Origin: Alphaproteobacteria bacterium
GTDB lineage: Bacteria; Pseudomonadota; Alphaproteobacteria; UBA828
Assembly: GCA_965237415.1 (NCBI GenBank)
Contig: CBDEFM010000001.1
Coordinates: 649,357-713,356 of the forward strand
Reading direction: 5' to 3'
Length of the DNA stretch: 64,000 nucleotides
Below, piece after piece: positions 11,852-49,136 of the stretch (position 1 is the stretch's first letter; each line of letters starts with the position of its first letter). The translations under genes and the position numbers were made by a program. The notes beneath the pieces are model-generated. The model ran no database searches, was not told the origin of the DNA, and saw only the letters and a list, made by a program, of their open reading frames with translations.

Positions 11852-12665
<814 letters not shown>

Positions 12666-30608: not shown

Positions 30609-31206
30609 CGCCCGTTCTCGCCGGATTCGGACCGGGGTTTCGTTTCCGGCTCCAGCGCCCGGACGGCCGCCATGGCGATCGTCACGGCGAGGTCCGTGCT
30701 CAGCGTTGCGATTCGTCTTCCGGGATTCTCGATCATGCGAATTTGATGGCGCAATCGAAGATCGCAGTCAACGCAGCCCAGCCACGAAACCTGACAATCA
30801 CAGATATCGAGTCAGCAACCGGGGTTGTCGCTTTGGGTTCGGCGTCGTCGTCGGTCTGTCCATGAACAGCGCCTGTGAACCTTCCGGCCAATAACCGGAG
30901 ATGCACAGGTCAAGATCCTACCTCCGCAACCTCATATACCCCGTTATGCCAACAGGATAGCTGGGTATTTCATTTTCCGTCCCCGAGCTGATTGCCTGGC
31001 CGTAAGCATACTGTAAGCGGAGTCAATGCATCGTGGGGCCGGGCTGTGACCGCGCGTGGCAACGTCGCCCGCGGAATTTTCCTGCGTTCACACGCATGGC
31101 GCCGCATGGCCAGCCCGCCGCCGGGGTCGCAACCTGAAAGCGGGGGTCCCCGGTGCGCGCGGCTGGCTGCGCCGGTCGGTCTGCGCGCGCCAGGTCGGTA
31201 AACCGG

Positions 31207-31262
31207 GGCGGTGCTTACGGCGGGCTGGCGGTGCTTACGGCGGGCTGGCGGTGCTTACGGCG
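31207..31262. repeat. 20-bp tandem repeat, about 2.8 copies
   Basis: GGCGGTGCTTACGGCGGGCT x2 plus a 16-bp partial copy. Confidence 0.9.
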
Positions 31263-31324
31263 ACCGGTATTGCGCCGGTGGCCACGAGACGTTGGCGGCC
31301 ACCCACCCGGTTCCGCCCACTGTC

Positions 31325-31570
31325 GGATACCCTGGTTGTCATCGGAGTTCCACGCCAGAATCTTCTCCATCATCGTCACCGCTTCCCGGGATCGGCCCAG
31401 CCGCGGATGGCAAAGGACCGCCCCGCGAGCCGCGCGAAGAAGCGGGCGGTTCTCCAGAGTTCGCATTCGATGAATTCCTGGAAGTCCGGCGGAATGAGTT
31501 CCGCCCGCAGCGCATTGCCCCGCATGCAGGATCCGGTGCGCGTTTGAACTTTCCCTGGTCGTACAGTGCG
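31325..31570 (-). pseudogene. Degraded partial duplicate of the TPR gene (matches about 30160-30410)
   Basis: ELIPPDFQEFIE / LENRPLLRAARGA / ILAWNSDDNQGIR, with frameshifts. Confidence 0.8.
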
Positions 31571-31874
31571 TATGGGGCCCACGACCGGGCCATCAGACTC
31601 CTCCGGAGCGGTGGGCGGTCATTTCCGTGTGTACGGATCCGCCGGCGGCCGAGGGCGCCGGCGCTGCCCGTATGTCCTCTGGGCATCGAATTCGACCCAA
31701 TCGGCATTGGCATTTTCGGTTTCCGGTCGTTAATCGATTCGGTCCTTGGCGCCGCGGTGGCGGCGTCGAGAACCGGCAGACAGGACCATGACCGGGAGAC
31801 TATCGGGAAGGGCCTGGGCGAAAGCCTTCGGCCGCGCGCGGGCGGCGGGACGGGCCGGGCGGCGGCGTAGCGCG

Positions 31875-32393
31875 ATGGACGTGGTCGTCGTCGAATCGCC
31901 CGCCAAGGCGCGGACAATCCGCAAGCTTCTCGGCAGCGGGTACCGGGTGCTGGCGACCAGCGGCCATGTCAGCGACCTGCCGGCCAGGGCGGGCTCGGTC
32001 GATCCCGAGGACGGTTTCGCGATGGTCTACGAGACCGGGCGCCGGGCGGCGCGGGCGCTCGCGGCCATCCGGGCGGCACTCGCGGATGCTGGCCGCCTGG
32101 TCCTGGCGACCGACCCCGACCGCGAGGGCGAGGCGATCGCCTGGCAGGTGCTGACCTGGCTGCGGGAGCGGGACGCGATCGGGGAGACGCCGGTCGCGCG
32201 CGTCGTCTTCCACGAGATCACCCCCGGAGCCGTGCGGGACGCGATGGCGCATCCGCGCGAAATCGACCTGGACCTGGTGCGGGCGCAGCAGGCACGCCGG
32301 GCGCTGGACTACCGTGCCGGCCTCTCCGACAATGCGGACGAGGGCCTTGCCACCGGAGACTTCGACAACACCGGGTTGGACGGGGCCGGTTAA
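31875..32393 (+). pseudogene. Type IA topoisomerase N-terminal TOPRIM fragment
   Basis: VVVESPAKARTI, SGHVSDLP, LATDPDREGEAIAW, RVVFHEIT, AQQARRALDY, then loss of homology and a stop. Confidence 0.85.
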
Positions 32394-32720
32394 GCGGTTC
32401 GGCCCTGGGGGCGATGTGGTTCATGGCAGTCTCCATGGAGGGTTGCATCGGTGCGGCGCCGGCGGCGCTCTCCGGCCGCCCCACGCCTGCCCTCCCCACG
32501 GGCCGACTCGGCCTCCTGGCGGTGCTCCGGGCAGCTGCACACCTCGATGGCGGTGCTGTGCCGCGGACCCGGGCCGAATCCGGTGCCGGCTGGGTTGACG
32601 CGGCCGGGCCGTTGGTCGAGGAATTTGCACTGTCGCGGGAAGTGGGTATTTCCGGCGGCCTGGCCATGGGGGACGCCGGAGTTCCAGGGTAGTGCGGACG
32701 AGGGAAGGCAGGAGGGTTCG

Positions 32721-33800
32721 GTGAGCGGAACGCGCGATCGCGAGGTGGCACGGTACTGGGGCGGGTTGTCCCTGCTGGTTCGGCTCTCGCAAGCCGGTAC
32801 CGAACTGTCGAGCGAGGAAGTCGGCGCGCTGCTGGGGACGCGGAATGTCAAGGGGATCGGGGCCGCGTTATCCGGGACCAGGGGCACGCTCCGCGGGGCA
32901 GGCATTCGCATGGAGGAGGCGGCAATCCGTCGGACGGTGCGCGGCCGGAGTGTCTGGACCGGCGGACCGCGGATCCGCCAGGCGATGCATGTTCTCGAAC
33001 AGGAGCGCTACCGATGGACGATCGGCAGCGTACGCAACGATTCACCGATAGAGAAGGTTCGACCCGGGGAAACGGGGCCGGTGCTCGTGCTTCGGGCGCT
33101 GAAGTCCCGGGGGAACGTCTACCGGATCGACGGCGGGATGACCGAACTGGACGAGATCCTCGACGACGACCTGTTGGAGATCGGTGACGCCCGAAGCGAA
33201 ACCATCGGGGAAACCTTCGTCGCCCGGATCGAACCGGGCGAGGACGGGCGAGAGCACCCGGTGCCGGATGGCTACGGGGAGAACGGCATCTGGGTGCGCG
33301 GCGAGCACGATTACGACGATTCTCGAGTGCCGGGCGCGATCGGGACTGGACTTTGGTCGATCATGATCGCCTGGGTCGGCGAAGCGACCTGGGTCGAGCG
33401 CCGCCTTCCGTTCGAGGACGTGCGCCGGCAGGTGGCGATGGCAAGTGCGGAAAACAGCCGATTGTTTTCCAGGGATGCGATCGCACACTGGCGGGACGTC
33501 GAGCCGGAATCGTGCTTCCGCTATGTGAACTGGATCGGCGCGCGCGGCCTCGACGGCCCGCGGCATGCGCCTCCGCTGCGCATGCGATTGCGCTGCTGGT
33601 ACGAGGTCGTGATCGGGACGGCGACGGGCAGACGCATCGTTCTGCGCGAGGAAGGGCTGCGCGGCGACGACGCGCGTACGACGAGCCGGGCGATCGGACG
33701 TTGGCGCCAGTTGCAGGACAAGGCAGCCAGCGAGCCGGTAGCGTTCCGAGAGCTCCGGATCGCCAGGAAGCAGCCTCGGCCGATGCCAGCGGACCGATAG
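32721..33800 (+). CDS. Hypothetical protein
   Basis: Long open frame with GC3-rich codons; GGAGG RBS before GTG at 32721; no motif recognised. Confidence 0.55.
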   Translation: MSGTRDREVARYWGGLSLLVRLSQAGTELSSEEVGALLGTRNVKGIGAALSGTRGTLRGAGIRMEEAAIRRTVRGRSVWTGGPRIRQAMHVLEQERYRWTIGSVRNDSPIEKVRPGETGPVLVLRALKSRGNVYRIDGGMTELDEILDDDLLEIGDARSETIGETFVARIEPGEDGREHPVPDGYGENGIWVRGEHDYDDSRVPGAIGTGLWSIMIAWVGEATWVERRLPFEDVRRQVAMASAENSRLFSRDAIAHWRDVEPESCFRYVNWIGARGLDGPRHAPPLRMRLRCWYEVVIGTATGRRIVLREEGLRGDDARTTSRAIGRWRQLQDKAASEPVAFRELRIARKQPRPMPADR

Positions 33801-34446
33801 GGTAGGCACAGAACGGGGGGTCGGGAAGGTGGGCGAGTGGCCAAACAGCACGAAATACGGCACAGAGCGCATAGCCACCGGTCAGGCGGTGCTCCCACAA
33901 GGATCGACGTTGACCGGGGCGACGCGGTACGGATAACTGGGGAGCTATGGCCAAAGCGCGACGGGGAATCGATGGATTGGAGGATTCGGTCACGACCCAA
34001 GGCGTCACAAACCGTCTCGATATGGAATCCGGCCGATTGCTATACGATGACGGACGGACATGGGCTCAGCGGCCAGCCGCGGCGAAATCCCAAGAGGACA
34101 GCCGCGTTGGGGGCCGGGACGCTACTGGTCCGGATGCTCGATTGCATATGTGGCAAGGAGGTGATGTACCGCAACATCTTGATGCGGTCGACCAGGGAGG
34201 CGGCCAGAGAAACAGCCGGAATGCACCTTGAATCAGCCGCGACGCTGTCCGAAAAGGCGGAGCCACCTCAGTCGAATGAGGGTTCGGAAGCGTGGTTCCG
34301 TCAGGGAGTGGGACCGCTGACTAGTTGTCGACAACCGTCGCCCTCCCGCAGCCGCGGACCTCGCCCATGAACGAGTTGAGCTACGAAGTTGTTATCCTCG
34401 CATGGGCCGACCGGATATGTACAATCAGATTATCCAAGCCTAGCGT

Positions 34447-35877
34447 ATGTCAACACCGAACCCGCTGCCACAGATAGCGGCGGCTACTAGAGAAGCATCT
34501 TGGAGCACTAGGATGACCGTTGCACGCAACGACCAAGTCTATTTCAAAAGCCTAAGCCTCACCAACGTACGTTCATTTGGCGAGACGCAACAGCTCGATA
34601 TGACCGATGCAGATGGCCGACCGGCTCAGTGGACTCTAATCCTCGGTAACAACGGCGTTGGAAAGACAACACTGCTTCAATGCCTCGCATCGATGCGGCC
34701 GGTTCCTGCAGTACCCGCTAAAGAAGACACCAATGCTCCGACCCCCGAGAGAGTTGTGCCTGCCCTTCTACAGCGTGAGAACAGCGAGCTCGTTGCATTG
34801 GCACGGGTCGGCGAGGAAGAGGTGAACTTGCACGCTGCTCTCGTTGTAGGTCAACCGTTTCGTTCAAAGGCCACGAAGGCTAAAGAGGTTGTTTTCAAGG
34901 CGAACATTCGGGTTAAGAACGGAGAGCTAAAAAACGTAAAGCAAACTTCTGTTGACATGAAGAATGCTAGCGAGCCGCTGGTTATTGGATATGGGGCGGC
35001 GCGTCACATGCATAGCAGGGGTGCTGAGGTCTTCATGCCACATCCAGACCCAACGGCATCACTGTTTGATCCTAGCGTAGAGCTTGTAGATACAAGAGAT
35101 ATTCTGGAACAGCTCGACTATGCGGCGGTGAAGCGACAACCTCGCGCAAAGGGTCTTCTTTCATGCATCAAGGAGGCCTTGGCAAAGCTTCTCCCGGACG
35201 TAGAAAAGGCCTCAGCAGTTAAGTTGTATGGGCCTGCGCCGCCGGGTTCCCACAACCGAAAAGCTGGCGTCCAAGTTGTGACGCCCTATGGGGAGGTTCC
35301 TTTTGAGGCGCTAAGTTTAGGCTACCAAACGATGACGGCGTGGACAGTCGATTTGGCCTGGCGACTTACACAACATTACCCAAATGCTGATGATGCGTTG
35401 CAAATGCCGGCGATTGTTCTCATTGATGAGCTTGATCTGCACTTGCATCCACGCTGGCAGCGGGAAATACGGGATAGCATTTCGGACGCGTTTCCGCGAA
35501 TTCAATTCATTGCGACTGCGCACAGCCCGTTACTGGCACAGTCATATTTGGACCTCAACTTAGTTGTCGTGCGACAAGAAGGCGGCCAAGCAATCATCGA
35601 AAGAGATTCAAACATTGTTAGAACTTGGCGGATTGATGAAGTAGTTACCAGCGCCCTTCACGAAGTTAACTCTGTCTATTCTCCCGAGATTGGGCGTGAA
35701 CTTCGGGAACGAACCAAGCTCTTGCAAAAGCGCCGTCTAACTCCAGAGAACAAGAAGCGCTTGGACGAGCTGAATAATTTGGCAGAAAAACTCGTCCCGG
35801 CAATTGATTCGGATAACCATCGGGCCCTGGATGTTATTCGGCGGGCAGCAAGCCTCTTGGATGTGAACGAGAAGTGA
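34447..35877 (+). CDS. ABC/AAA-type ATPase, PtuA (Septu)-like
   Basis: ILGNNGVGKTT Walker A, LSLGYQ, VLIDELDLHLHPRWQR, QFIATAHSP; AT-richer than the flanks. Confidence 0.85.
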   Translation: MSTPNPLPQIAAATREASWSTRMTVARNDQVYFKSLSLTNVRSFGETQQLDMTDADGRPAQWTLILGNNGVGKTTLLQCLASMRPVPAVPAKEDTNAPTPERVVPALLQRENSELVALARVGEEEVNLHAALVVGQPFRSKATKAKEVVFKANIRVKNGELKNVKQTSVDMKNASEPLVIGYGAARHMHSRGAEVFMPHPDPTASLFDPSVELVDTRDILEQLDYAAVKRQPRAKGLLSCIKEALAKLLPDVEKASAVKLYGPAPPGSHNRKAGVQVVTPYGEVPFEALSLGYQTMTAWTVDLAWRLTQHYPNADDALQMPAIVLIDELDLHLHPRWQREIRDSISDAFPRIQFIATAHSPLLAQSYLDLNLVVVRQEGGQAIIERDSNIVRTWRIDEVVTSALHEVNSVYSPEIGRELRERTKLLQKRRLTPENKKRLDELNNLAEKLVPAIDSDNHRALDVIRRAASLLDVNEK

Positions 35878-36659
35878 TTTTGGTCATTAAGCCGGTTGCC
35901 CCTCGCTCATTGGCTGCCGGTGTCGCAGAAACCGTCACACATTGCACTGACTTCGATGCCGACCCACAGGGTTACCGAGATGGCGCAAAATCATTTTCGT
36001 TCAAGCGCTCGATATACGGCAGTGCTCGAGTAAAGAATGTCCTCAAAGGTGCTCAGAAAGAAAAGTGTTGTTTTTGTGAGGCGCGGTTCGATGCAAATTA
36101 TCAGGGGGATGTCGAGCACTACCGACCTAAAGGCGCGATTGGTTCTGGAAAGACAAAGATCAAGCCGGGATATTATTGGCTGGCTTACACTTGGAACAAT
36201 CTCTATTACGCGTGCGCTGACTGCAACCAGTATCGGAAGCGTGCAGCTTTTCCACTAGTTGATGAAACCAATAGAGCACTGGATCATCATGGTGCAATAG
36301 GTGACGAAGATCCACTCATCCTGGACCCGGGTGGCCCCCGCGATCCTCGCGATCATATTCGTTTTGTTAGGGACGTGCCGACGGGGACCACTGCTGCTGG
36401 GCGAGAAACCATTGGGCGCCTAAAACTCGACCGAGAGGCACTGTGTCGAGACCGTCGAGAGCACTTTCGTATTCTTCAAGCAATGATTGACATCATTCGC
36501 CTCAACGAATTTGACGAGCGACCAGAGGCGATGCGATGCGTGCGCGATGCACGCTCAAATTTGGTGAATTATATGGAGCCAGAGGGCAAATACTCGGCCG
36601 CCGCCCGGGACTTTCTGGCCCCTTTTCGGCAATACTGGGAGGCAAGAATTCAATTGTGA
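35874..36659 (+). CDS. HNH endonuclease, PtuB/TIGR02646-like
   Basis: KCCFCE, DVEHYRPKG, YYWLAYTWNNLYYACADCN; GTGA overlap with the ATPase. Confidence 0.85.
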   Translation: MILVIKPVAPRSLAAGVAETVTHCTDFDADPQGYRDGAKSFSFKRSIYGSARVKNVLKGAQKEKCCFCEARFDANYQGDVEHYRPKGAIGSGKTKIKPGYYWLAYTWNNLYYACADCNQYRKRAAFPLVDETNRALDHHGAIGDEDPLILDPGGPRDPRDHIRFVRDVPTGTTAAGRETIGRLKLDREALCRDRREHFRILQAMIDIIRLNEFDERPEAMRCVRDARSNLVNYMEPEGKYSAAARDFLAPFRQYWEARIQL

Positions 36660-36780
36660 TCCGGCACGTTCGAGTCGATGTAGCCCAATTCCTTTTCAGG
36701 TCACTTTCGCTCGTAACCCGTTCGGCCGCAATTGAAACGAAATCTGCCAATATACGGCTTTCTACGGTGCAAGCTTTCAG

Positions 36781-37140
36781 CCCGGTTTTCTCAAACCTTG
36801 GTCCGAGACGAGGATGGTCGGCGGGTTTTTGGGTATTGGTTTGGGATGACCGTGGGCTGCGGCCGGGTGGGGGATTTGAGGCGAGCGGAGACGGCCTCCG
36901 TTTGGCGGGTGGGTTGTGTTGCGCTGTGCCTCTTTTGTTGCTGGGACGGGTTTGGCTGGGCCGCTTACGCCGCGGCGGCGGATAGTCGGTGGTGGGCGCG
37001 TTGGAACTCGCTCCGGTTAAGGACAACCGGAAACCATCGCGAACTTGATCCGTCGCACGCTGATGCGCACCAGGGCGGCGATCTTCAGCAGCTTGAGCCG
37101 GATGGTGCCGCAGCTTGCCCTGGCGAAGCGGGTACCCTCG
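36781..37140 (-). pseudogene. IS1380 family remnant (C-terminus and end)
   Basis: Minus strand reads GTRFARASCGTIRLKLLKIAALVRISVRRIKFAM; end-like CCCGGTTTTCTCA at 36781. Confidence 0.65.
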
Positions 37141-37246
37141 AAGCCATCGCCGCCGGACACCCCAACAGCCGCATCGACGAACTGCTCCCCTGGAACTTCA
37201 CGCCCGCGTCAACCTGAAATCCAGGTGCCGCGCCGGCACCGCTTAC
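37140..37246 (+). pseudogene. IS66 TnpC C-terminal tail and right end
   Basis: EAIAAGHPNSRIDELLPWNF, followed by CACCGCTTAC (GTAAGCG-type end). Confidence 0.7.
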
Positions 37247-37258
37247 GATAGTTCAGCG

Positions 37259-37452
37259 TTCAGCGCCTTCGTCAGCGTACCGATGTGGACCGACCCGCTC
37301 TTGATGATTCAGGTCTACGACCCGGTGCTCACTCCGCGCTCGGAGGCGACACTGAGCGCCATCAGCGCTTTCCTGTTCCTGTTGATCGAGCTACTGGACC
37401 ACTTTGGCGCCGGGGTGCTACCCAGTGTCGGGGCGTGCTTCCAGGCGCGTGT
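37259..37452 (+). pseudogene. Degraded N-terminus of a PrtD-type type I secretion ABC transporter
   Basis: FSAFVSVPMWTDPLLMIQVYDPVLTPRSEATL...FLFLLIELLDH...GACFQAR resembles the PrtD motif (P-L-F-M-L-Q-V-Y-D-R-V-L-x-S-R-S-x-x-T-L). Confidence 0.5.
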
Positions 37453-37585
37453 TGGCCCCAGAATATTCAAGCGGAAAGACAGGATACGATGATGGCGGTA
37501 CTGGATGGGATTGTCGCGACGGTAGTGGAAAAAAAGCGGGCTACGGGTCGAGGGGTTGTCGGAGAGACTTGCTCGCTCCACATAT

Positions 37586-38434
37586 TTATGACCTAGTGCT
37601 GCTAGTGTAAGGAAAATACGGTGCCAAGAATGAAGAGGCAAGCCGATACCCTGAAGTTGTCCAATTGCGAGAGCTGATAAGACGTGCCACGCCAACCATT
37701 TCCGCTTCTATAGCGCTGACACGTGCTCTTCCGAACTCCGCACTTTGTGGCCGTTGATTTACGATGTCGGCCCAAAATGCTCGAAGATTGCCGAAGACAT
37801 AAATTCCATGAACAAGTCCCTGCAAAGTTCGTCTTTCTCCTTTCCACGGGGAATGTACTAAGATCTCATCGGTATTGTTCGCTATCAGCGGCTCCACTCT
37901 CTCAACCAAGGAAAGCTGAAGGTGAAGTGCTTCGTGAACGATACTCTCCGCTAGACGCTCCACTCTGTATTGCGCGTCCACTGGTGGGCACGAAACAAAG
38001 ATAGAAAAAGGCAATGCGGGGTCGCTAAAACTAATGTCGATCTCGTGGTCGTTGCTAATCAGAGGATGCAAAGACCGACACATCTCCGTGACGGTTGCAT
38101 GAATTTCCTGATTGTCTTGTATTAGAACCAGTGAATCGACCAACGTGTGCATAAACATTTTGCCTTCCAAGTCACATGCCTTGGCAAGTTGTAGACCCAC
38201 GCTCTCCCAGGGTTTAGCTAAATCACCCGACAATAGCTCCACAATCATATTTGGGCAAGGTGACGACGGTAGCCTTTCAGATGGGCTTAGGGATTTAGGG
38301 TTGGATCCACCTAGGTGCCGAGAAGTAGAGTAATGATACCAAGGAGAACATTCACCAAGAAACTCCTGCCTCAACTTCGTCGGTGCAGATGGGTGCCAGC
38401 CGCATGGCCGAGCAATTAGGTCGTAAACTGTCAT
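37586..38434 (-). CDS. HExxH-motif protein (aKG-HExxH peptide beta-hydroxylase-like)
   Basis: ISFSDPALPFSIFV, LAESIVHEALHLQL, SPWKGERRTLQGLVHGIYVF. Confidence 0.85.
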   Translation of the reverse strand: MTVYDLIARPCGWHPSAPTKLRQEFLGECSPWYHYSTSRHLGGSNPKSLSPSERLPSSPCPNMIVELLSGDLAKPWESVGLQLAKACDLEGKMFMHTLVDSLVLIQDNQEIHATVTEMCRSLHPLISNDHEIDISFSDPALPFSIFVSCPPVDAQYRVERLAESIVHEALHLQLSLVERVEPLIANNTDEILVHSPWKGERRTLQGLVHGIYVFGNLRAFWADIVNQRPQSAEFGRARVSAIEAEMVGVARLISSRNWTTSGYRLASSFLAPYFPYTSSTRS

Positions 38435-39009
38435 CCACTGGCGGGGTAAAAGGAATACACGATCGTAAAACGCTCTCCCGAATGCACAGTGCTAACGGCA
38501 TGATAAGAGTGTGGCGAAATTAGAAATGCTTGGATTGAACCATTAAAAGGCTCGATCACCTTACTTAGGGATTCAGGCTCGGGTCCTGAAAATAGCATCA
38601 AATAGCCGCCATGTTCGGGTTTCCAACCCCTATTAAGTTGAAGTAGGAGCCGATGGCTCTCTCCTCCGGGGATGAAGTCATTGTGAATACGTATGGTTTG
38701 GCCGCAAACAAGCTTATGTGCGGTGATGTCAACAGATTCGCTCAACGATTGACCAAATAGCTGGAATAGTTGGCGACGCAGCGACGCTAGAGCGTTGGGA
38801 CAAATAAGGTGTTGCAAGAAGGGAGGTACGGAGATATGGCGAAGACTGAATTCGTACTGCTCATAGAAGTCTGTAGTGGTTGGCGTCCAAGGGGCTTTTT
38901 CTTCCAGCCAAGTAAGACATTCAACGAAATTTGATAGCATTACCGTAGGCGCAACCAGATGTTCGAAAGGAACGCTGGCGAACTCTACATTGTCAATATC
39001 AGGAAACAC
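38431..39009 (-). CDS. yhhC: 2OG-Fe(II) oxygenase, YhhC-like
   Basis: DFYEQYEFS, IRIHNDF (HxD), GGYLMLF, SYHAVS...RFTIVYSF. Confidence 0.8.
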   Translation of the reverse strand: MFPDIDNVEFASVPFEHLVAPTVMLSNFVECLTWLEEKAPWTPTTTDFYEQYEFSLRHISVPPFLQHLICPNALASLRRQLFQLFGQSLSESVDITAHKLVCGQTIRIHNDFIPGGESHRLLLQLNRGWKPEHGGYLMLFSGPEPESLSKVIEPFNGSIQAFLISPHSYHAVSTVHSGERFTIVYSFYPASG

Positions 39010-39012
39010 AGA

Positions 39013-40188
39013 TCAGCTCGGCGGTTGAAATGGCACTTGGCCAAAGTCGAATTCGCCCAGTCGATCAACAGCATGATTTATTAAGAGGGCGTGGTCCTTG
39101 CAGTAGACGGAGGGGTTGTTGTAACCGTGTTCCTCGCTCCAGCGGTACAAGGGCATTCCCCCACCGCAAAGGGGGAGAAAAGGGCAGACTTTACACTCGG
39201 TGCAGGTCGGAATCTGCATAGCGGCATAAGAAAGGTACTCGTGGGAAGAAAGAACGTCATCTAAGGTGCTATTCACTATGTTCCAACAGTGATCAAAACG
39301 GTCGGCACCTTCGTAGGAGGCGCGCAGTGTGTCGTTCTTACGAATATCACCGTTAGTCTCAACAATCAGGATGCCATGTTGGTCTTCACCAACCCCTTCC
39401 TTCTGGTTAGAGCCCCCAAGATACAGTTTTACTAAATCATCAAATATGCGGATTGGAACACTTGATTTGTCGGAGAGGTACAAATCGAAGAGTCGCACCA
39501 ACCAGTCTCCATACTCAGTGGTAGTAAAATGTGACTTACTGGGCGGGAGCCGGTCATGGTTCCCATCTTGCAACAGGAAATCCATGCTTGGGGTATCCAG
39601 TTCCTTCAAGAAAGCGTATACAGAATCGGGTGAAATAGAAGGCTGAATCACGGACAAAGTTCCAGCAAAAAGAAAATCGTGCTCTGAATGCGAGGCCAAT
39701 AGGCGTATACCTCGGAGTACGGCTGAGAATGTGCTCCGGCCACGACGGTCAAGTCTAGCAATATCATTTGCTGCGCGGGGCCCGTCTATACTGACGGATA
39801 CACTTGTCCGGGTCTCTGCAAAGAGGTCCAGAAACTTCTCCGAGAGGAGGGCTCCGTTTGTTTGAATGCTGATGGGGTGACGATCAGGGTTCATTGAGGC
39901 TCGCAGCCCGCGAAGCAGTAGTGCCAAGTCCTCAAAACCTAGTAGAAGAGGCTCGCCGCCGTGCAGGACAATGGCGAATCCTGCGCGCTGATGCGCCGCA
40001 TGCGCGGCTAGCCGATCCCGGACGGCCAGCAGCGTGTCGCGGCGCATGCGTTTCGGTTGGCTGCGCCAACCTGTATCTGGTCCTTGATATATGTAGCAAT
40101 AGGAGCAGTCAAAGTTGCAGCGGCTAGCGGTCTTGACGAGGACTGTGTCCACACGCTTGGAGGCGGTGACGGGGTGGCTAAAGCGCAA
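39013..40188 (-). CDS. yhhB: Cyclophane-forming radical SAM/SPASM peptide maturase, YhhB-like
   Basis: KTASRCNFDCSYC (CxxxCxxC), HGGEPLL, IQTNG, SVSIDGP, SPASM CTECKVC...CGGG...NPSVYC. Confidence 0.9.
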   Translation of the reverse strand: MRFSHPVTASKRVDTVLVKTASRCNFDCSYCYIYQGPDTGWRSQPKRMRRDTLLAVRDRLAAHAAHQRAGFAIVLHGGEPLLLGFEDLALLLRGLRASMNPDRHPISIQTNGALLSEKFLDLFAETRTSVSVSIDGPRAANDIARLDRRGRSTFSAVLRGIRLLASHSEHDFLFAGTLSVIQPSISPDSVYAFLKELDTPSMDFLLQDGNHDRLPPSKSHFTTTEYGDWLVRLFDLYLSDKSSVPIRIFDDLVKLYLGGSNQKEGVGEDQHGILIVETNGDIRKNDTLRASYEGADRFDHCWNIVNSTLDDVLSSHEYLSYAAMQIPTCTECKVCPFLPLCGGGMPLYRWSEEHGYNNPSVYCKDHALLINHAVDRLGEFDFGQVPFQPPS

Positions 40189-40193
40189 AACGG

Positions 40194-40388
40194 CTACCTA
40201 CCGCCGCGATTGTGTCGGTTGTGGACGCGGTCATAGCCGGCTTTGGCGTTATGCTCGTTTCGCACCTCCTCCATTAAACGAGACAGGACGGGGTGGCGCG
40301 TCGCCAGAACGGGTCGGTCCGTGCTCGGGCGATCATCAGTCGAGGGCGGTGACGAATCCAGTGACGGTTGGGCAGCATGATTGTCCAT
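40194..40388 (-). CDS. yhhA: Triceptide precursor peptide, YhhA-like (64 aa)
   Basis: MDNHAAQ...HPVLSRLMEEVRNEHNAKAG-YDR-V-HNR-HNR-GGR; GGAG RBS; 5 bp upstream of the rSAM gene. Confidence 0.85.
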   Translation of the reverse strand: MDNHAAQPSLDSSPPSTDDRPSTDRPVLATRHPVLSRLMEEVRNEHNAKAGYDRVHNRHNRGGR

Positions 40389-40599
40389 GGTTTGGGCTCC
40401 AGCTTCCTTCGTGGCGGTCCGACCGAGTACTAGAATGGCGAAGAGGCCATTGGCTAGCATGGTAGTGTAATGGCTAGGATAGATGCAAGAAGGAAAGTAA
40501 ATCATTGATAAAGCGGAGTTTTTCTCTTCTCATAATCGTAACTTATTGAAAACAAACAATTCTATTTTCTATCTTGAGGGGACGCGGGCTGAGCCGTCG

Positions 40600-41050
40600 G
40601 TCGTCGGCCACGCGCCGACGCCGCTCGACCCCGCACCGAACATGGGCGCGGCGCTCGGCATCGGTGTGTGGATCAAGCGCGAAGACTGCACCGGGCTCGC
40701 CTTGGGCGGCAACAAGGTGCGCCAGCTTGAGTTCCACTTTGGCGCGGCGCAGGCGTGCGGCGCGGATACGGTGCTGGTCACCGGTGCGGTGCAGCCGAAC
40801 CTGATGCGCATCGCCGCCGCGGGTGCGCACCAGGTTCGGGATGGAGGCGCACATCCAGCTCAAGGAGCGGGTGGACGGCGCCGGCGGTCCCTACCGCACA
40901 TCCGGCAACCTGTTGCTCGACCAGGTGCTGGGCGCTGCGCTGCACCCTTTCCCCGGGGGCGGGGACGAGGCGGCGGCGGACGCGGCGATGGAACGGCGCT
41001 CGCGTCGGAGAGCTGTAAGCCCTACGTCATCCACTCCGAGCCGGGGCATC
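40600..41050 (+). pseudogene. D-cysteine desulfhydrase/ACC deaminase family remnant
   Basis: HAPTPLD, WIKREDCTGLALGGNKVRQLEF, TGAVQPN; continuation SGNLLLDQVLGA is in another frame. Confidence 0.8.
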
Positions 41051-41126
41051 CGCCGCGCCGGCGCGTGGGACGCGAAGCTGTGCCGAACATTTAGGGGCGA
41101 TTCGCGAATAGCGGGAGAAGGCGGCG

Positions 41127-41441: not shown

Positions 41442-42131
41442 GTGAGCGAGCGGATCGCGCGGCTGCGCATCGAGCTGCAGGAGCTGGAGCCGAAGATCTG
41501 GCGGCGCATCGACATGCCGTTGTCGACGACGCTGGAGGCGCTGCACGAAGCGATCCAGATGACCATGGGCTGGACCTTCTCGCACCTCTGGGAATTCGAC
41601 ATCGACGGCCGGTGCTACGGCGATCCATCGTTCCGCGAGTTCGACGACGAGCCGCCGGTCTACAAGGCGAAGGCCCTGCGGCTCGGCACAGTGATCGAGC
41701 GCGGAGCGGAACGGTTCGTCTACGTCTACGACTACGGCGACAACTGGCGCCACGACGTGATCGTCGAGGAGGTGCGTCACGGCGACCCGGAAATGGAGTA
41801 CCCGGCCTTCGTGGACGGGGCCCGGCGGTGTCCGCCGGAGGATGTCGGCGGCCCTGGCGGCTTCATGGACTTTCTGGAGGCGACCCTCGATCCGGCGCGC
41901 GAGGAACACCGGGACATGGTCCGTTGGTACGGCGGGCCGTTCGATCCGATCGACTCCGACGAGGCGAGGGCCCGTTTCGGCATGGAGAACATGGCGCGGC
42001 GACGGCGCGGCCTGCTTGCCAGCCAACCACAGGAGCGGCTCGCGGCGTCCGAAACGATGAGGGCGACGTCTCGGGTGGCAGGGCGGATCGACGCGGGCGT
42101 TTTCGGTCCGGAATCGCCAGGCGACGCCTAA
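41442..42131 (+). CDS. Plasmid pRiA4b ORF-3 family protein
   Basis: PKIWRRIDMP, LHEAIQMTMGW, HLWEF, YVYDYGDNWRH, GARRCPPEDVGG. Confidence 0.9.
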   Translation: MSERIARLRIELQELEPKIWRRIDMPLSTTLEALHEAIQMTMGWTFSHLWEFDIDGRCYGDPSFREFDDEPPVYKAKALRLGTVIERGAERFVYVYDYGDNWRHDVIVEEVRHGDPEMEYPAFVDGARRCPPEDVGGPGGFMDFLEATLDPAREEHRDMVRWYGGPFDPIDSDEARARFGMENMARRRRGLLASQPQERLAASETMRATSRVAGRIDAGVFGPESPGDA

Positions 42132-42623: not shown

Positions 42624-43019
42624 CTAGCTCCATCTCTCCCAAACACGGTCGTACCACCTGCCTTCCGATTTCGAAATCGGCAGGTGCCACATGATCGCAT
42701 TCCGAACAATTGAGTAATGGCTTCTGCATGGGAACTTGACCCCGATCGAAGGCCGCAGGGTTAGATACTCACCATCGTAGGTCAAGCTTCGAGTCTCAGG
42801 GTCCAGCGTCACGTCGACCAAACGACCACACCCGCATGGACATAGATGGGAAAGGGTGGCGAACCTCATGCTGACGTAAAGTGTGCCATTTTCCATTTCG
42901 GGTAAGTGCGGGATTGTCTCAACAAACAATGGTTTTAGTACTATTGATTCTCGGTTCCTCACATCATAGTTTGGATAAGAATTGCGACTCTCCCGCTTTC
43001 CCCATTTCCAAAATCGCAC
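42624..43019 (-). CDS. DUF6527-like protein (putative Ubl-operon peptidase)
   Basis: GTLYVSMRF...HLCPCGCG...LTYDGEYLTLRPSIG...PCRSHYSI. Confidence 0.8.
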   Translation of the reverse strand: MRFWKWGKRESRNSYPNYDVRNRESIVLKPLFVETIPHLPEMENGTLYVSMRFATLSHLCPCGCGRLVDVTLDPETRSLTYDGEYLTLRPSIGVKFPCRSHYSIVRNAIMWHLPISKSEGRWYDRVWERWS

Positions 43020-43020
43020 T

Positions 43021-44157
43021 TTACACCCCCCTCGGTATGAGAGATTGTTCACTAGCACTGTAGTGTAGGCACTCTTCTCTTTGTTCCTGCCAGAATTGAC
43101 CGCGCATCTTTCTCCAAGACTGAATTGCCCAGCCAGCAGCCATTGAGTAGACGTCGGGCAAGTCAAGGCTTCCATAGTCGTCCTGTCCCGCCTGGCCAAC
43201 TTGAGGGATAGCATCCCTCCAAGAGGACACACCGACGTGGGCGGTTACTATCCGTAAGGAAACCTTGACTCGCCTGTCTATACGCACTGGTGAGAGTCCT
43301 ACGACGACGAACGGAATTCCAGCGTTGGCCAGCGTGTCACACACCATCATCCGGTCGTCAGCGTCGTCCACGGCCACGAAAGTGAAAGTGGACTTTTCAA
43401 TGACCTCCTGCACGTTTTCAGGGCGCACCCTTACATTGTGGCCATGTACGTCCGTATGGATGAGGGAGTAAGCCTCCTGGAACCAGTGGGCCTTCGGCCT
43501 ACCGATCCAGACGTTCGGATCGAGGCCACCGGGCATGCGAAGTATGTTCTTGGGTTCAATGCAGTCGTAGTCCCATCCATGAACCTCTCGAGGGTCGGCC
43601 TTGACAACAAAATCTGCTATCCATGCGCCGACACCACCGAGGCCGACAATCGCCACACGCTCTTGAGCTACCAGACGCCTCCACTCCCTTGCTTCTGGCA
43701 GTTGGTCACCAAGCACATCGAACGTATAGGGACGAGGAGCTGGTTCCTCCCTTGACGCAGATTGGCCAAGGAACAGCGCATATATCTGCTTGACATAATT
43801 GTTTAGTGCTTCCCAAGCATCCTCATACTCGCGGCCTTTCAGCTTGATCGAAAGAACAAGGCTGGAATGAGCCCGTCCAATCACGCCGTTGGTCAACTCA
43901 TTGCCGGACCGGTCGTACAATCGTCCATCGGAGAGACCTCGTATATTGGCCGTGTGCAAAGCACCTTGTTGCCAGTCGTGGCTTGCTTTGAGTTCGTCCG
44001 TGTTTGATGCGGTGCCTACGCAGATGTGACACTTGCCTGCGATATTCGGCGCGACAAAACAAGGCACGCCCAATGCACTTATTTCCAAGTCTCGACGCTC
44101 AATTGTCCACCCACGTCGCTCCGCTTCACGGCGAGCCAGTGATTCATGCTCAGACAC
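43021..44157 (-). CDS. ThiF/E1-like adenylyltransferase with N-terminal (DUF6791-like) domain
   Basis: RVAIVGLGGVGAWIAD, D...KNILRMPG, FTFVAVD, GIPFVVVG. No C-terminal CxxC Zn motifs. Confidence 0.8.
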   Translation of the reverse strand: MSEHESLARREAERRGWTIERRDLEISALGVPCFVAPNIAGKCHICVGTASNTDELKASHDWQQGALHTANIRGLSDGRLYDRSGNELTNGVIGRAHSSLVLSIKLKGREYEDAWEALNNYVKQIYALFLGQSASREEPAPRPYTFDVLGDQLPEAREWRRLVAQERVAIVGLGGVGAWIADFVVKADPREVHGWDYDCIEPKNILRMPGGLDPNVWIGRPKAHWFQEAYSLIHTDVHGHNVRVRPENVQEVIEKSTFTFVAVDDADDRMMVCDTLANAGIPFVVVGLSPVRIDRRVKVSLRIVTAHVGVSSWRDAIPQVGQAGQDDYGSLDLPDVYSMAAGWAIQSWRKMRGQFWQEQREECLHYSASEQSLIPRGV

Positions 44158-44166
44158 GCACTTCCC

Positions 44167-44472
44167 CTAGGCCAGATATGAGTCGTCAATCTTGAACGAC
44201 AGTTCATCAACCACGGCCATTGGTTCATCCGATGGATAGAAAATTCCCTTTGTTCCATCTTTCGCCGTCCAGTTGATCCCCGGAAGATCACCTATGACGT
44301 GTCGATCCGGATCGAGTTTGTTCCACTGTTCGACCACTTGCGCAAAGCTAATTGTCGGCTTGTCCCACAGCACCGAGCGAGCATTGATGTAAATTGTGAA
44401 CTCCTTGATGATGTCCGTTGGTTCGATTTCGATGGGGATGGGTCCATCGCCGTTACCAGGTTCTTGCACCAT
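44167..44472 (-). CDS. Multiubiquitin-domain (ubiquitin-like, beta-grasp) protein
   Basis: FTIYINAR...TISFAQVV...SFKID pattern; GAGGAGG RBS; directly upstream of the E1-like gene. Confidence 0.7.
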   Translation of the reverse strand: MVQEPGNGDGPIPIEIEPTDIIKEFTIYINARSVLWDKPTISFAQVVEQWNKLDPDRHVIGDLPGINWTAKDGTKGIFYPSDEPMAVVDELSFKIDDSYLA

Positions 44473-44492: not shown

Positions 44493-44918
44493 TTAGCTAT
44501 GTCTCTGTCCGTTTGCCTCTAGTGTTCTGCACGTAGGGCAAAGAGCATCCCCCGGCGGGCGGTCAAGTTGCTCAAGGAAGTTTGTCGTGGGCCACCCAGA
44601 GCAGTTCTCGACCCAATGCCACCAGCCGCCGAAGGCGGTCTGCTGTGCACGTCGATACATTCGAAGCTCCTTGCGCCCCGCGTGGGTCAACACATGCCGT
44701 CCTGCCGGTGTCTGAACCAGATGACCAACCTGTCGAATGGCGTATCTGATGATTCCGGCGCGAGAGGTCGTGGTCGTCACAGTGGAATCGGGGTCGATAT
44801 TTCGCGTCAAATCGGCGATGTGCTCGCCGATGGCCAGCATTGAGGCTAGGTCCGTCGCATTCGCCCGAAACGACAAGTTCGCTTCTTCCTTGAGGTCGTC
44901 GTCCTGCTTGTCCGCCAC
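44493..44918 (-). CDS. Hypothetical protein: possible ribbon-helix-helix N-terminus and C-terminal Cys/His (WHW...C...CPTC) module
   Basis: AGGAGGG RBS before GTG 44918; SRAGIIRYAIR; WHWVENCSGWP...LCPTC. Confidence 0.5.
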   Translation of the reverse strand: MADKQDDDLKEEANLSFRANATDLASMLAIGEHIADLTRNIDPDSTVTTTTSRAGIIRYAIRQVGHLVQTPAGRHVLTHAGRKELRMYRRAQQTAFGGWWHWVENCSGWPTTNFLEQLDRPPGDALCPTCRTLEANGQRHS

Positions 44919-45314
44919 CGGTTCCCTCCTGCATCGTTCGCCCAAGGATGTAGCACGTAGAAGGTTTATGTGCAACCCGGACGTACTAAGACGGACATTG
45001 GCAGACGTCGTAGTTCCAGGAAGGGGTCCATAGAGGCAGCCGCGCCGTGGTCCGTCTGAATGCGGCTCACGGCGAGGAACCGATGGTGGAAGATCGGCGC
45101 GGCAGGTAGGTAAGGCCGCGAGTGCAGTGGCAGCCCCACCCACGGCACGATTTGGCCGTCATTCTGGCCGAAGTTCACCAGCGTCCTCCTAAGGCTGCCC
45201 GCCGCGGAGAGGGCGGGGCGGGCCTCGCTGGGAGCGGGCCGGCGGTTGGGACTCCGGAGGGAGCGGTGCCGCCGTCTCTTTTTCGCCTGTTCGAAGCAGC
45301 ACGGCACGACGCAG

Positions 45315-45737
45315 TCAGCGGAGCACGGTACGGCTCTTCTTAGAGCGAGCTAGTTCAAGGAAGCGGGTCTTGATCCGTGCGAGCAGTCTTGGCGGGATGA
45401 AACCGTAGCTGAAGGTGTCCGGCTGACTGGGCAGCGGAGACAGCCCGGCATTGGGCCATTCATCGATATTGTGCTCCGACACGATCACCCAGCTCGGCGC
45501 GTCGTCGAGGCCCAAGGCCTGACTGACGCGCGCCGGGACTTCGATTCCCACGGTATCGCCCGCGGGCGGTGTATGGGTGATCGGCAGTAGAACGACGTAG
45601 CGCGGAAGAACCGCCGGATCGGCGGCTACCAGACAGGACGGACGGGTCTTGCCCTGGTCGTGACCGGCGGCGGCCTCATGCATCCAGAGGTAGTCGTAGC
45701 GGATGACCAGGCCCGGCTTCGGATCAGGAAGCGCCAC
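45315..45737 (-). CDS. PemK/MazF-like toxin
   Basis: PDPKPGLVIRYDYLW, GKTRPSCLV, VVLLPITHTPP, LGLDDAPSWVIVSEHN. Confidence 0.75.
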   Translation of the reverse strand: MALPDPKPGLVIRYDYLWMHEAAAGHDQGKTRPSCLVAADPAVLPRYVVLLPITHTPPAGDTVGIEVPARVSQALGLDDAPSWVIVSEHNIDEWPNAGLSPLPSQPDTFSYGFIPPRLLARIKTRFLELARSKKSRTVLR

Positions 45738-45950
45738 CCTTCGCTCCTGCGTCGTTCGTCGGAGGTCTTGTAGCACAGTGCAGTGACATGTGCAACAATG
45801 ACATACGACGTTGGGCGTAGACGCACGTGCTAGCGCGATCCAGTGCGAGTAGGATCCGCCGCGCCGTGGTCCATCTGGATGCCGCTCCAGAGGCAGTCGT
45901 AGCGGACGACCAGGTCCGGCTTCGGATCGGGAAGCGGCACCGCTTCGTCG

Positions 45951-46205
45951 TTACGTCAGCAGGTCATCGAGCGGCTTGTGCTCTACATCCATCTCGGCGC
46001 GCTCCACGGCGTCGATGACCACATCGGCGGCGGCGTCTGTGCGATGGCTGCGCTGTGCCGAAGCCCGAAGCCAGTCATATTGCTCCGCAGACATGAGCAC
46101 GAACTCGCGGCGCCCATGCCGGGTTATCTCCACCGGCTCGCGCCGCGCCTCGTGCTGGAACCGGCCGAACTTGCGCTGGAACTCGAAGGCGCTCACGGTG
46201 GGCAT
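45951..46205 (-). CDS. Phd/YefM family antitoxin
   Basis: VSAFEFQRKFG...EPVEITRHGRREFVLMSAEQY. Confidence 0.88.
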   Translation of the reverse strand: MPTVSAFEFQRKFGRFQHEARREPVEITRHGRREFVLMSAEQYDWLRASAQRSHRTDAAADVVIDAVERAEMDVEHKPLDDLLT

Positions 46206-46270
46206 GGCAGCCTCCCCAGGTAACAGGTACCTGCCGCAATATACGTATTATCCGTAGAGATGAAAGCGGC

Positions 46271-47443
46271 TTATGGCGCAGTAACGAGATCGTTGTCGAT
46301 GCTGTCGCCGATGCGCGCCGCGGACGCCTTCACGGTATCGCGGGCAAGGTGGGCGTACCGGGCGGTGGTCTGGACCTGGGTGTGACCGAGCAGTTTTCCG
46401 ATCATCGGCAGCCCTTCGCCAAGCGCCAAAGCCCGTGAGGCGAAGGAATGGCGGAGGTCATGAATTCTCACATCGGGCAGCTCGGCCCGCGCCCGGATGC
46501 GCCGCCAAGGATGCTGCAGATCGGTGAGGTTGGAGCCAGGCAGCTTGCCAGCGATCACCCAGTGATTGTTTTCGTCTCTGGGCAGACAGGCCAGTAGCCG
46601 CACGGCTGAAGGCGCCAGCGGTACGGCGCGGCCGCCCGTCTTGGTGTCGGGTAACCGCAACTCGCCGGCGTCCAGGTCGACATAGTCCCAGCGCAGCTTC
46701 TGGATCTCGGAAAGCCGGCAGCCGGTCAGCATCAGCAATCGGATGGCAACCACTGCCGAGCGGGTCTCGGAGCCGTCCTCGAGGATTTCATCCAGAACCT
46801 TGCCCAGGCGCTGGAATTCCTCGGCGCTCAAGAACCGTTCGCGCTTCTCCTCCTTGAACCGCTTGACGTGCAGGCAGGGGTTCGAGGCATCGGGGCGGAG
46901 GCCCCACACTTCGGCCAGGTTGAACATCTTGGACAGCACACCGAGCGTGCGGTTCGCCTGGTAGGGGGTCTTGCGCAAGCCGTGGTGTAACTCTGCGATG
47001 TCACTCCGCTGAACTTCGGTGACCTTGCGGCGACCGATCCTGGGATCGATGAAGAGTTCGACCGATCGTCGGTACTCATAGGCGGTGCTCGGTTTGCAGT
47101 GGGCGGGGACGTATTCCTCCAAAAAGCGCACGCCAAGATCCTTCACGGTCCCGATCTGCCGGTCTGCGTCCCGTTGCGCGGCCGGGTCGCCGCCGGACTT
47201 GACCTCGGAGAGCAGGGCCATCGCGCGCCGGCGCGCCTCTTCCGGGGAAATGGCCGTAACCGGTCCGAGGGTCATTCGGCGGACCCGACCGTTGGCGCGA
47301 AACTGGGCGACGAAGAACTTGCGGCCGGAAACCCTGACGCGCAGACCGAATCCGGGCAGTTCCCGGTCCCAGTAGAAGCGATCCGATCCGTCGCTCTCAA
47401 TGCGATCGATGACGCGTTTGGTGATCTTGATCTGTGCCGGCAT
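46271..47443 (-). CDS. Tyrosine integrase with N-terminal arm-DNA-binding domain (P4-like)
   Basis: FYWDRELPGFGLRV, LMLTGCRLSEI, KTG, IHDLRHSFAS, LLGHTQVQTTARYAHL (complete catalytic set). Confidence 0.93.
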   Translation of the reverse strand: MPAQIKITKRVIDRIESDGSDRFYWDRELPGFGLRVRVSGRKFFVAQFRANGRVRRMTLGPVTAISPEEARRRAMALLSEVKSGGDPAAQRDADRQIGTVKDLGVRFLEEYVPAHCKPSTAYEYRRSVELFIDPRIGRRKVTEVQRSDIAELHHGLRKTPYQANRTLGVLSKMFNLAEVWGLRPDASNPCLHVKRFKEEKRERFLSAEEFQRLGKVLDEILEDGSETRSAVVAIRLLMLTGCRLSEIQKLRWDYVDLDAGELRLPDTKTGGRAVPLAPSAVRLLACLPRDENNHWVIAGKLPGSNLTDLQHPWRRIRARAELPDVRIHDLRHSFASRALALGEGLPMIGKLLGHTQVQTTARYAHLARDTVKASAARIGDSIDNDLVTAP

Positions 47444-47660
47444 GGCGTTCCCCGCTTCCCTCTCCGCTGGGAAGCACCATATCACGCTGGGAATCCCATG
47501 GGAATCACCAGAATTCAAAACCGGGACGTTCGCGAGCGTCGACTGGCGAGTAATATGGCATTTGACGACACCACTAAGCTACTGTAATATAGCGGTATTG
47601 TCGTAGATAGGCGGTGGCCGGCGAAGCGAGGGTCGAATTGGCGAAGGCATCCGATACAAA

Positions 47661-47704
47661 CTCATAACCTGAAGGTCGTAGGTTCAAATCCTACCCCGCA
47701 ACCA
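47661..47704 (+). other. 3' fragment of tRNA-Met(CAT), probable att site
   Basis: CTCATAACCTGAAGGTCGTAGGTTCAAATCCTACCCCGCAACCA: anticodon loop, T arm and CCA end. The D arm and 5' half are absent. Confidence 0.88.
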
Positions 47705-49112: not shown

Positions 49113-49136
49113 CGCGTTCTCCCCGACCGACCGGCT

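Follow-up and report, generated by a model that had tools for sequence, protein, structure and literature searches.

We analysed a window of DNA, a stretch of 64,000 nucleotides from an alphaproteobacterial genome of the UBA828 lineage (assembly GCA_965237415.1, contig CBDEFM010000001.1, positions 649,357 to 713,356), which carries a gene cluster for a ribosomally made, post-translationally modified peptide (RiPP) of the Yhh triceptide type and, beside it, a Septu-type ATPase-nuclease pair, PtuAB. The list of open reading frames (ORFs) of the window includes four tightly spaced ORFs on the minus strand between positions 37586 and 40388, namely yhhA, yhhB, yhhC and a gene for an HExxH protein (Table 1). 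Their junctions are, in order, a gap of 5 nt, a gap of 3 nt, so that yhhC begins 3 nt past the end of yhhB, and an overlap of 4 nt; a reading of the sequence places a GGAG-like site about 8 nt ahead of the yhhA ATG. All four genes score above their NCBIfam cut-offs, YhhB and YhhC as equivalogs, and the Pfam matches are concordant (Radical_SAM in YhhB, 2OG-FeII_Oxy_4 and 2OG-FeII_Oxy_3 in YhhC). The biosynthetic half of the locus is therefore already known: as judged from family membership, the operon is a textbook YhhA/YhhB/YhhC triceptide cluster joined by an alpha-ketoglutarate-dependent (aKG) HExxH hydroxylase. The cysteines C24, C28 and C31 of YhhB (CxxxCxxC) and its C-terminal C332, C335, C341 and C363 show no variation in eight homologues. 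The G+C content is 0.47-0.53 over positions 37500-40000, as compared with 0.62-0.76 over 25000-34000 and 0.64-0.69 over 45000-50000, and a scan of 19 ORFs from 29.5 to 50.5 kb of the window found no transporter or peptidase. Scans of the window for promoter and terminator consensus sequences gave fewer sites than shuffled sequence did. These data agree with the preliminary description of the locus, which had reported a tight four-gene operon, richer in A+T than its flanks and with no intact exporter or leader peptidase nearby; the cyclophane and hydroxylase chemistry that it predicted is likewise supported by family membership and by published homologues.

Table 1. Features of the window discussed in the text, in window coordinates
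Feature	Position	Strand	Description
ptuA	34447-35877	plus	Septu-type ABC ATPase; PADLOC PDLC00304, E 1.2e-142, positions 6-440 of 444
ptuB	35874-36659	plus	HNH nuclease; PADLOC PDLC00339, E 6.7e-79
Spacer	36660-37585	none	926 nt between the convergent ptuAB and yhh operons; IS66-type remnant
aKG-HExxH-type peptide beta-hydroxylase gene	37586-38434	minus	282 aa, HEALH motif; TIGR04267, 87.1 bits (cut-off 40)
yhhC	38431-39009	minus	192-aa 2-oxoglutarate (2OG)-Fe(II) oxygenase; NF041706, 231 bits (cut-off 150)
yhhB	39013-40188	minus	391-aa radical SAM/SPASM three-residue cyclophane synthase; NF041707, 477.3 bits (cut-off 445)
yhhA	40194-40388	minus	64-aa precursor; NCBIfam NF041705, 47.8 bits (cut-off 36)
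Group II intron domain	22691-22917	plus	Rfam RF02005, 165 bits
504-aa ORF after intron domain	23015-24529		Probably the intron-encoded protein
PALP fragment	40546-41094		PLP-dependent enzyme, first ~80 residues only; high G+C
Plasmid pRiA4b ORF-3-like protein	41442-42131	plus	PF07929, E 2.8e-58; host-like G+C; between the yhh and E1-like operons
DUF6527 gene overlapping ThiF/E1-like gene	42624-44157	minus	Weak PADLOC E1-E2 and NCBIfam PRK06153 matches
Small ORFs beside the ThiF/E1-like operon	44167-44472 and 44493-45143		
Three tyrosine recombinases in a row	46271-47518, 47940-49112, 49137-50426	minus	Right edge of the low-G+C region

The published chemistry of homologous enzymes indicates what the operon may produce. 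According to the available text of the respective reports, YhhB joins Tyr-C3 and His-C2 to the beta-carbon of Arg (PMC11002830; PMC11499958), YhhC acts on YhhB-modified YhhA to yield erythro-beta-hydroxy-Asp (PMC12186529), and aKG-HExxH domains hydroxylate the beta-carbons of Asp and His after cyclophane formation, some HExxH enzymes also cleaving the peptide backbone oxidatively (PMC12636437). In the window, YhhB would accordingly be expected to staple the YhhA core into three 3-residue cyclophanes (Tyr-Asp-Arg, His-Asn-Arg and His-Asn-Arg), YhhC, by family a peptide Asp beta-hydroxylase, would hydroxylate the beta-carbon of Asp, and the HExxH enzyme would add at least one further beta-hydroxyl, most likely on a ring His or Asn. 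The predicted product is thus a peptide bearing three small cyclophanes and one or more beta-hydroxyl groups. The YhhA/YhhB/YhhC triceptide system (Sugiyama et al., J Am Chem Soc 2022, doi 10.1021/jacs.2c00521), as it is described in PMC11002830, PMC11499958 and PMC12186529, shares with the window its precursor family and identical core motifs (YDR, HNR and HNR), whereas the fourth enzyme, a separate aKG-HExxH protein, and the linked PtuAB pair go beyond the published YhhABC set. The aKG-HExxH domain fused to a radical S-adenosylmethionine (SAM) cyclophane synthase (Morishita et al., Nat Chem 2024, doi 10.1038/s41557-024-01596-9), as presented in PMC12636437, belongs to the same TIGR04267 family and likewise has a cyclophane-forming radical SAM partner; in contrast to this fused form, the HExxH protein of the window has its own gene downstream of yhhC. 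No biological role is assigned in the available text of the papers on Yhh chemistry (PMC11002830, PMC11499958, PMC12186529, PMC12636437).

Fused YhhB-HExxH proteins of about 710-740 aa were also found among our records, accompanied by GNAT and family-2 glycosyltransferase genes but by neither YhhC nor PtuAB, in another genome of the window's genus (L206, genome G402) and on plasmids of Novosphingobium (L200) and Rhizobium (L201). One record has the fused gene beside a Piwi and SMEK pair, another beside a His-Xaa-Ser (HxsABC) system. A YhhB above the cut-off was present in 2 of 20 other genomes of the window's genus, suggesting that yhhB is an accessory gene, and no YhhB relative was found in phage genomes at E 1e-30.

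The precursor peptide has a highly constrained C-terminus. The window YhhA ends in YDRVHNRHNRGGR, which comprises the core YDR-V-HNR-HNR followed by GGR, and its leader carries the conserved motif L-x-R-L-[IM]-E-E-V-R. When 69 precursors were aligned, whose YhhB proteins range down to 43% identity, the core consensus Y[D/N]R-x-[H/Y/F]NR-HNR was nearly invariant, with Y52, R54, R58, H59, N60 and R61 of YhhA present without exception. The core stands at the C-terminus or at most four residues from it, with the leader motif L-x-R-L-I-E-E-V-R ahead, and it is strongly basic and aromatic. Cores are alike in loci with and without the HExxH gene or PtuAB, so that the target of the HExxH enzyme is unreadable from the sequence. 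A near-invariant core would be unusual among competitive RiPP antibiotics. We suggest that the constancy of the core, despite YhhB identities as low as 43%, fits a single fixed intracellular target better than a diversifying antibiotic.

The PtuAB pair lies downstream of the yhh operon on the opposite strand. The start of ptuB overlaps the stop of ptuA by 4 nt. Residues invariant among 16 Yhh-linked PtuA proteins include the Walker A motif (G67, K73, T74 and T75), the signature residues S290, G292, Y293 and Q294, the Walker B/D-loop residues D327 and D330, and H359 of the H-loop, while C65, E69, H82, N109 and N118 of PtuB show no variation in 22 sequences. PtuA thus retains all ABC ATPase motifs and PtuB its HNH residues. 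In gene order with overlap, in full-length PADLOC matches and in these motifs the pair resembles stand-alone Septu, from which it differs in being tied to a four-gene RiPP operon and in having a PtuA that belongs to a clade of its own (see below). It does not look like part of a retron: no reverse transcriptase (RT) domain was found by Pfam in the ORFs around PtuAB, no retron RNA by Rfam in the window, and the pair scores far below the NCBIfam cut-offs for the retron-type proteins (117.9 against 500 for PtuA, 40.5 against 150 for PtuB). Within the spacer between the two operons, an ORF at 36732-37217 matches the tail of DDE_Tnp_IS66_C (Pfam) and clusters with a 554-aa ORF of the relative L004, while the nearest relative, L001, has two other genes at this position; the spacer is no conserved part of the module. 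The preliminary description had mentioned the PtuAB-like pair, correctly as the PADLOC matches confirm, as one neighbour among others and outside the coordinates of its finding.

Metatranscriptome contigs (four libraries of one study) match parts of all six genes, that is, the four yhh operon genes and ptuAB, at 95-99% identity, one contig spanning yhhC-yhhB and another yhhB-yhhA. The contigs carry neither strand nor level, and DNA carry-over is possible; the matches are compatible with transcription in a close relative. A 192-nt contig over 40201-40392 covers almost exactly yhhA in two RNA-library runs, at depths of 18 and 28, the maximum of the stretch. An abundant short transcript of the precursor could account for this, as could an effect of the assembly.

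To see how regularly the two operons occur together, we compared related loci. The first set was made up of seven genome loci with YhhB proteins 62-87% identical to that of the window, and their neighbours were identified by tblastn. All seven hold the full yhhA-B-C-HExxH set, and six of them have PtuA and PtuB within a few kb at about 40-83% identity. At the position of PtuAB, the seventh (L005) has a gene for a 512-aa OLD-type ATPase-Toprim nuclease (7742-9280, minus strand) with the same low G+C as its yhh genes; its PADLOC matches are HEC-04 (E 4e-37) and retron I-B ATPase-Toprim (E 6e-24). A wider set was obtained by a profile scan of metagenome contigs, which gave 80 more YhhB loci at 43-60% identity. 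Hidden Markov models built from the window and the seven genome loci were mapped on all 87 loci, and merging of near-identical ones left 78 distinct groups, of which 41 have the separate HExxH gene. The HExxH gene is accompanied by PtuA and/or PtuB in 25 groups and by an OLD-type gene in one; in four more, PtuA or PtuB is present and the contig ends, or the operon decays, before HExxH. Of the HExxH loci flanked by 2.5 kb or more on each side, 16 of 17 have an ATPase-nuclease, or 17 of 18 when the window is included, these 18 consisting of 16 with PtuAB, one with the OLD-type ATPase-Toprim and one, disrupted by an insertion sequence (IS), with neither. In comparison, PtuA-like ATPases (E <=1e-8) occur in just 53 of 401 sampled genomes of the phylum, so that a given 5-kb neighbourhood would rarely contain one by chance. 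PtuAB is thus a conserved partner of the yhh-HExxH operon, and this neighbour link is the new part of the finding. Among the matches listed in a literature search, none joins PtuA or PtuB to cyclophane, SPASM, RiPP or HExxH, while the figures and supplements of the primary triceptide papers may show such neighbours; the items naming both Septu and radical SAM were, among the matches listed, general surveys.

The linkage persists although the genes are differently arranged. The 29 Ptu-positive groups fall into five arrangements: PtuAB downstream and convergent as in the window (11 groups), upstream and co-directional (9), upstream and divergent (7), nested between yhhC and HExxH (1, L007), and downstream and co-directional with a gap of 4 nt (1, L116). 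In the genome loci, PtuAB and the yhh genes share a lower G+C than their surroundings, as represented by L002 with 0.52-0.57 in the six genes and about 0.71 in the flanks. Flanking genes are unrelated between the genome loci, save L002 and L003, and the host sites differ. In L002, direct repeats of 210 nt (6772-6981 and 12675-12884; 95% identical) bracket exactly ptuB-ptuA-yhhA-B-C-HExxH between two host genes and look like the scar of a cassette insertion. No flanking repeats were found in L001, L003, L004, L006, L007 or the window, and they are hence no general cassette signature.

Phylogenetic analysis revealed a separate history for the linked PtuA proteins. In a tree of 49 PtuA-like proteins, the 21 that are Yhh-linked form one clade (approximate likelihood-ratio support, SH-aLRT, of 85) as opposed to the 28 others; the clade is sister to the three closest PtuA of the phylum sample, at about 40% identity, with the remaining 25 outside this pairing. 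For the Yhh-linked set, a comparison of the PtuA and YhhB trees shows agreement at the tips and conflict in the deeper branches. The YhhB proteins of the window and of L001 belong to the L002-L007 group, yet their PtuA proteins to the L137/L129/L122 group, and each data set rejects the grouping of the other (approximately unbiased test, p 3.5e-68 and 8e-67), the groups having been chosen after inspection of the trees. It follows from this conflict that PtuAB pairs were exchanged among Yhh systems, with changes of position, and that adjacency was restored each time. Adjacency kept through exchange is what selection for a functional link predicts, and it is not predicted by simple co-inheritance.

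We then surveyed the neighbourhoods for export functions and defence genes, sampling 150 of the 214 genes within 5 kb of 41 Yhh loci, of which 149 were scanned with Pfam. No ABC exporter, C39 peptidase, HlyD or major facilitator superfamily gene was found among these 149 neighbours, and no peptidase was recurrent, which extends the absence noted in the window to its relatives. Transport genes were seen once each (a MacB/FtsX permease, a TRAP DctM and a chromate transporter), and so were single S9, M1, S8 and SDH-type ClpP-like peptidases, with M78 twice. For comparison by PADLOC (E <=1e-12), we used 148 Yhh neighbours, the two longest having been dropped, and 150 of 468 neighbours of unrelated radical SAM genes as the control. 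Partial matches of the ABC-ATPase type occurred in 0 of 148 Yhh neighbours as compared with 8 of 150 control genes; their presence in the control serves as a positive control, indicating that exporters would have shown up. These comparative data suggest that the product is kept inside the cell. Mobile genes recurred near the Yhh loci, including integrases, transposases, a resolvase, Tn7-like TnsD/E, a relaxase and conjugation genes. Defence genes were represented by AbiEi/AbiEii, ThsB-TIR, TIR-STAND, SLATT, a Cap15-like 2TM effector and Pycsar PycC with PycTM, and further by McrBC, type I and type II restriction-modification, Mrr, SIR2 and a pPIWI-associated nuclease.

Several observations weigh against a dedicated module of the peptide operon and PtuAB with a role in defence. 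The enrichment for defence genes that the preliminary description had proposed to check was not seen in the raw PADLOC matches (25 of 148 Yhh neighbours as compared with 32 of 150 in the control). In the control, 26 of the matches were partial, to a methyltransferase (mad2, 18 proteins) or to an ABC-ATPase domain (mad3, 8 proteins), and at a profile coverage of at least 70% there were 19 Yhh matches as compared with 4 in the control (Fisher p 0.001); this enrichment is suggestive, and it is visible only after a post hoc filter. Each half of the module also occurs without the other. In four of the 78 groups yhhABC stands by itself, the available flanks (just about 2.1 kb downstream in L082) showing neither HExxH nor PtuAB, and yhhABC alone was found on a conjugative Vibrio plasmid as well, so that the peptide system can also stand alone. 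Likewise, the three genomes of the sister clade hold PtuA without any YhhB above the cut-off, with PtuB adjoining in two of the three, indicating that such PtuAB can stand alone. Clade-specific insertions, comparable to the extensions of retron PtuA, were not found in Yhh-linked PtuA, which differs from the three sister sequences at eight residue positions. In the window itself, the ptuAB and yhh operons are convergent, with 926 nt and an IS remnant between them, and are not co-transcribed. The sample has limits of its own: every locus was reached from a single query lineage, and the sample is thus not unbiased; 14 of the 78 groups have HExxH without PtuAB but can be read on just one side or scarcely at all; and 29 are too short to judge. 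One group (L098), flanked by 2.5 kb or more on each side, has HExxH and neither nuclease, and a clade of HExxH loci (L092, L093, L094 and L096) shows no PtuAB in the available flanks.

Some features of these last loci were noted separately. In L098, yhhB and yhhC are separated by the insertion of an IS with a DDE_3 transposase (11166-12269), with a RADAR-like RdrB gene upstream. In the clade of L092, low-G+C ORFs stand just upstream of yhhA, with 366 aa in L092 (1497-2597, minus strand) and 203 aa in L093 (343-954, minus strand) and L096 (265-876, minus strand). Those of L092 and L093 gave no Pfam match. These ORFs of L092, L093 and L096 may be alternative partners.

Beyond the yhh operon and PtuAB, the window contains further features of mobile and conflict-related elements (Table 1). 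The three tyrosine recombinases may represent an element of the recombinase-trio type. No tRNA in the window was supported by Rfam, including as a target of the recombinases. An 84-nt 'tRNA-Val' called by ARAGORN at 40972-41055 was considered as an integration site and rejected; it has no Rfam support and lies inside the PALP fragment. The DUF6527 and ThiF/E1-like pair is a conflict operon of the ubiquitin-like conjugation type, and it is not conserved beside other Yhh loci. The preliminary description had set the RiPP operon between PtuAB, a ubiquitin-like operon and a toxin-antitoxin module on an integrase-bounded island, and had read this context as a sign of phage defence. Its ubiquitin-like operon holds as far as the ThiF/E1-like and DUF6527 genes, with nothing more confirmed; its integrases correspond to the three tyrosine recombinases, and integrases are not conserved beside the relatives; and no toxin-antitoxin module emerged from Pfam, PADLOC or NCBIfam. 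The defence reading itself gains support from the conserved PtuAB linkage, a stronger argument than the one first given, and not from the ubiquitin-like, toxin-antitoxin and integrase context, which is not conserved.

Taken together, we consider the best overall explanation to be that the window carries a mobile six-gene anti-phage module composed of an intracellular RiPP and PtuAB, and we hold this with moderate confidence. That the six genes form one functional unit is very likely, and a role of the module in defence, to which the comparative genomics points, is probable. The peptide product would remain in the cell and would form a single anti-phage unit with PtuAB, the ATPase and HNH nuclease. 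By analogy with retrons, the continuously produced modified peptide, or its maturation machinery, might gate PtuAB, either as inhibitor or activator and either directly or indirectly, a step that we propose only tentatively. According to the available text of recent reports, retrons recruited stand-alone PtuAB, with the complex of RT and multicopy single-stranded DNA (msDNA) serving as the antitoxin; in type I-A retrons, PtuA is bound by RT-msDNA, which keeps the toxin neutralised until the RT-msDNA is removed by a phage nuclease (PMC12819146, PMC12640716). Type I-A retrons (Ec78, Retron-Eco7) likewise have a separate biosynthetic module beside PtuAB, and the OLD-like ATPase-Toprim of L005 mirrors the effector of type I-B retrons, PADLOC ranking ATPase_I-A, HNH_I-A and ATPase-Toprim_I-B among the matches. 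The example of retron I-A, together with the swap in L005 that mirrors the I-A/I-B difference, leads us to favour such gating. In contrast to a type I-A retron, the window has no adjoining reverse transcriptase or retron noncoding RNA, and the partner would be a cationic cross-linked peptide rather than DNA.

In one specific version, which is possible but doubtful, the cross-linked, hydroxylated YhhA peptide would be the sensor or antitoxin of PtuAB or of the OLD-type nuclease, giving a RiPP-gated abortive infection system and a peptide counterpart of retron msDNA. As long as SAM, 2-oxoglutarate, iron, oxygen and translation are present, the supply of peptide would hold the nuclease off; a phage that stops host synthesis or destroys SAM would end the supply, and the nuclease would fire. 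A predicted complex of PtuA, PtuB and YhhA, modelled with custom alignments, scored 0.01 against a mark of 0.32, a score that weighs neither for nor against such gating; the real ligand would be cross-linked, and the cross-links cannot be modelled.

An alternative explanation is that the modified peptide is itself antiviral, binding phage or host nucleic acid or a polymerase, and that PtuAB is an independent second layer kept by synergy. The yhhABC-only loci that stand without PtuAB in mobile or defence contexts (McrBC, ThsB-TIR, Tn7-like genes and a relaxase) fit such a peptide better than they fit gating of a nuclease, and the strongly basic, aromatic core would suit it as well. There is also a precedent in the lanthiphages, class I lanthipeptide clusters which, according to the available abstract, lie in defence islands and protect, or are proposed to protect, against phage (10.1101/2024.06.26.600839). 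These are likewise RiPP clusters in defence islands, and they differ from the Yhh module in RiPP class, enzymes and phyla, the abstract naming no dedicated ATPase-nuclease partner. An antiviral peptide acting on its own leaves unexplained the separate clade of Yhh-linked PtuA, the OLD-type nuclease in the place of PtuAB in L005, and the nesting of PtuAB within the operon in L007, and we regard it as unlikely.

It might also be supposed that the RiPP operon and Septu are functionally unrelated cargo of small mobile cassettes and defence islands, with the peptide serving elsewhere, for instance in metal binding, in signalling or as a cofactor. This would agree with the occurrence of both parts alone, with neighbourhoods full of integrases, transposases, resolvase and conjugation genes, and with the repeat-flanked cassette of L002. 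However, the adjacency outlasts five arrangements and an exchange of partners while the remaining neighbourhood is not conserved, and the frequency of PtuA-like genes in the phylum (53 of 401 genomes) contrasts with the presence of PtuAB in 16 of 18 well-flanked loci including the window, so that we consider mere hitch-hiking quite improbable. Finally, a secreted antibiotic or signal peptide, exported and trimmed by unlinked housekeeping transporters and peptidases, appears most improbable: many RiPP clusters do lack a dedicated peptidase, and oxidative backbone cleavage by the aKG-HExxH enzyme, as described in the available text of PMC12636437, could replace one, but no exporter stands near the 41 loci whereas the control radical SAM clusters give exporter-type ATPase matches, and the near-invariant core would be atypical for competitive antibiotics as RiPPs are generally known.

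The six-gene module that we favour can be seen either as a Septu system with a RiPP module or as a Yhh triceptide cluster with an effector; both kinds are known, and their combination is new. The chemistry of Yhh triceptides is solved, with no biological role assigned in the available text of the papers on it. Septu, for its part, is a widespread defence system whose activation is understood just for the stand-alone and retron-bound forms. The conserved coupling of yhh and PtuAB offers a RiPP a definite role within its producer that can be put to the test, and it adds to the retrons a second case in which a biosynthetic module was recruited to an ATPase-nuclease effector. Should the peptide indeed control the nuclease, post-translationally modified peptides would take a place beside nucleotides and msDNA among the small-molecule regulators of bacterial immunity, and for some orphan RiPP clusters the place to search would be defence islands rather than antibiotics.

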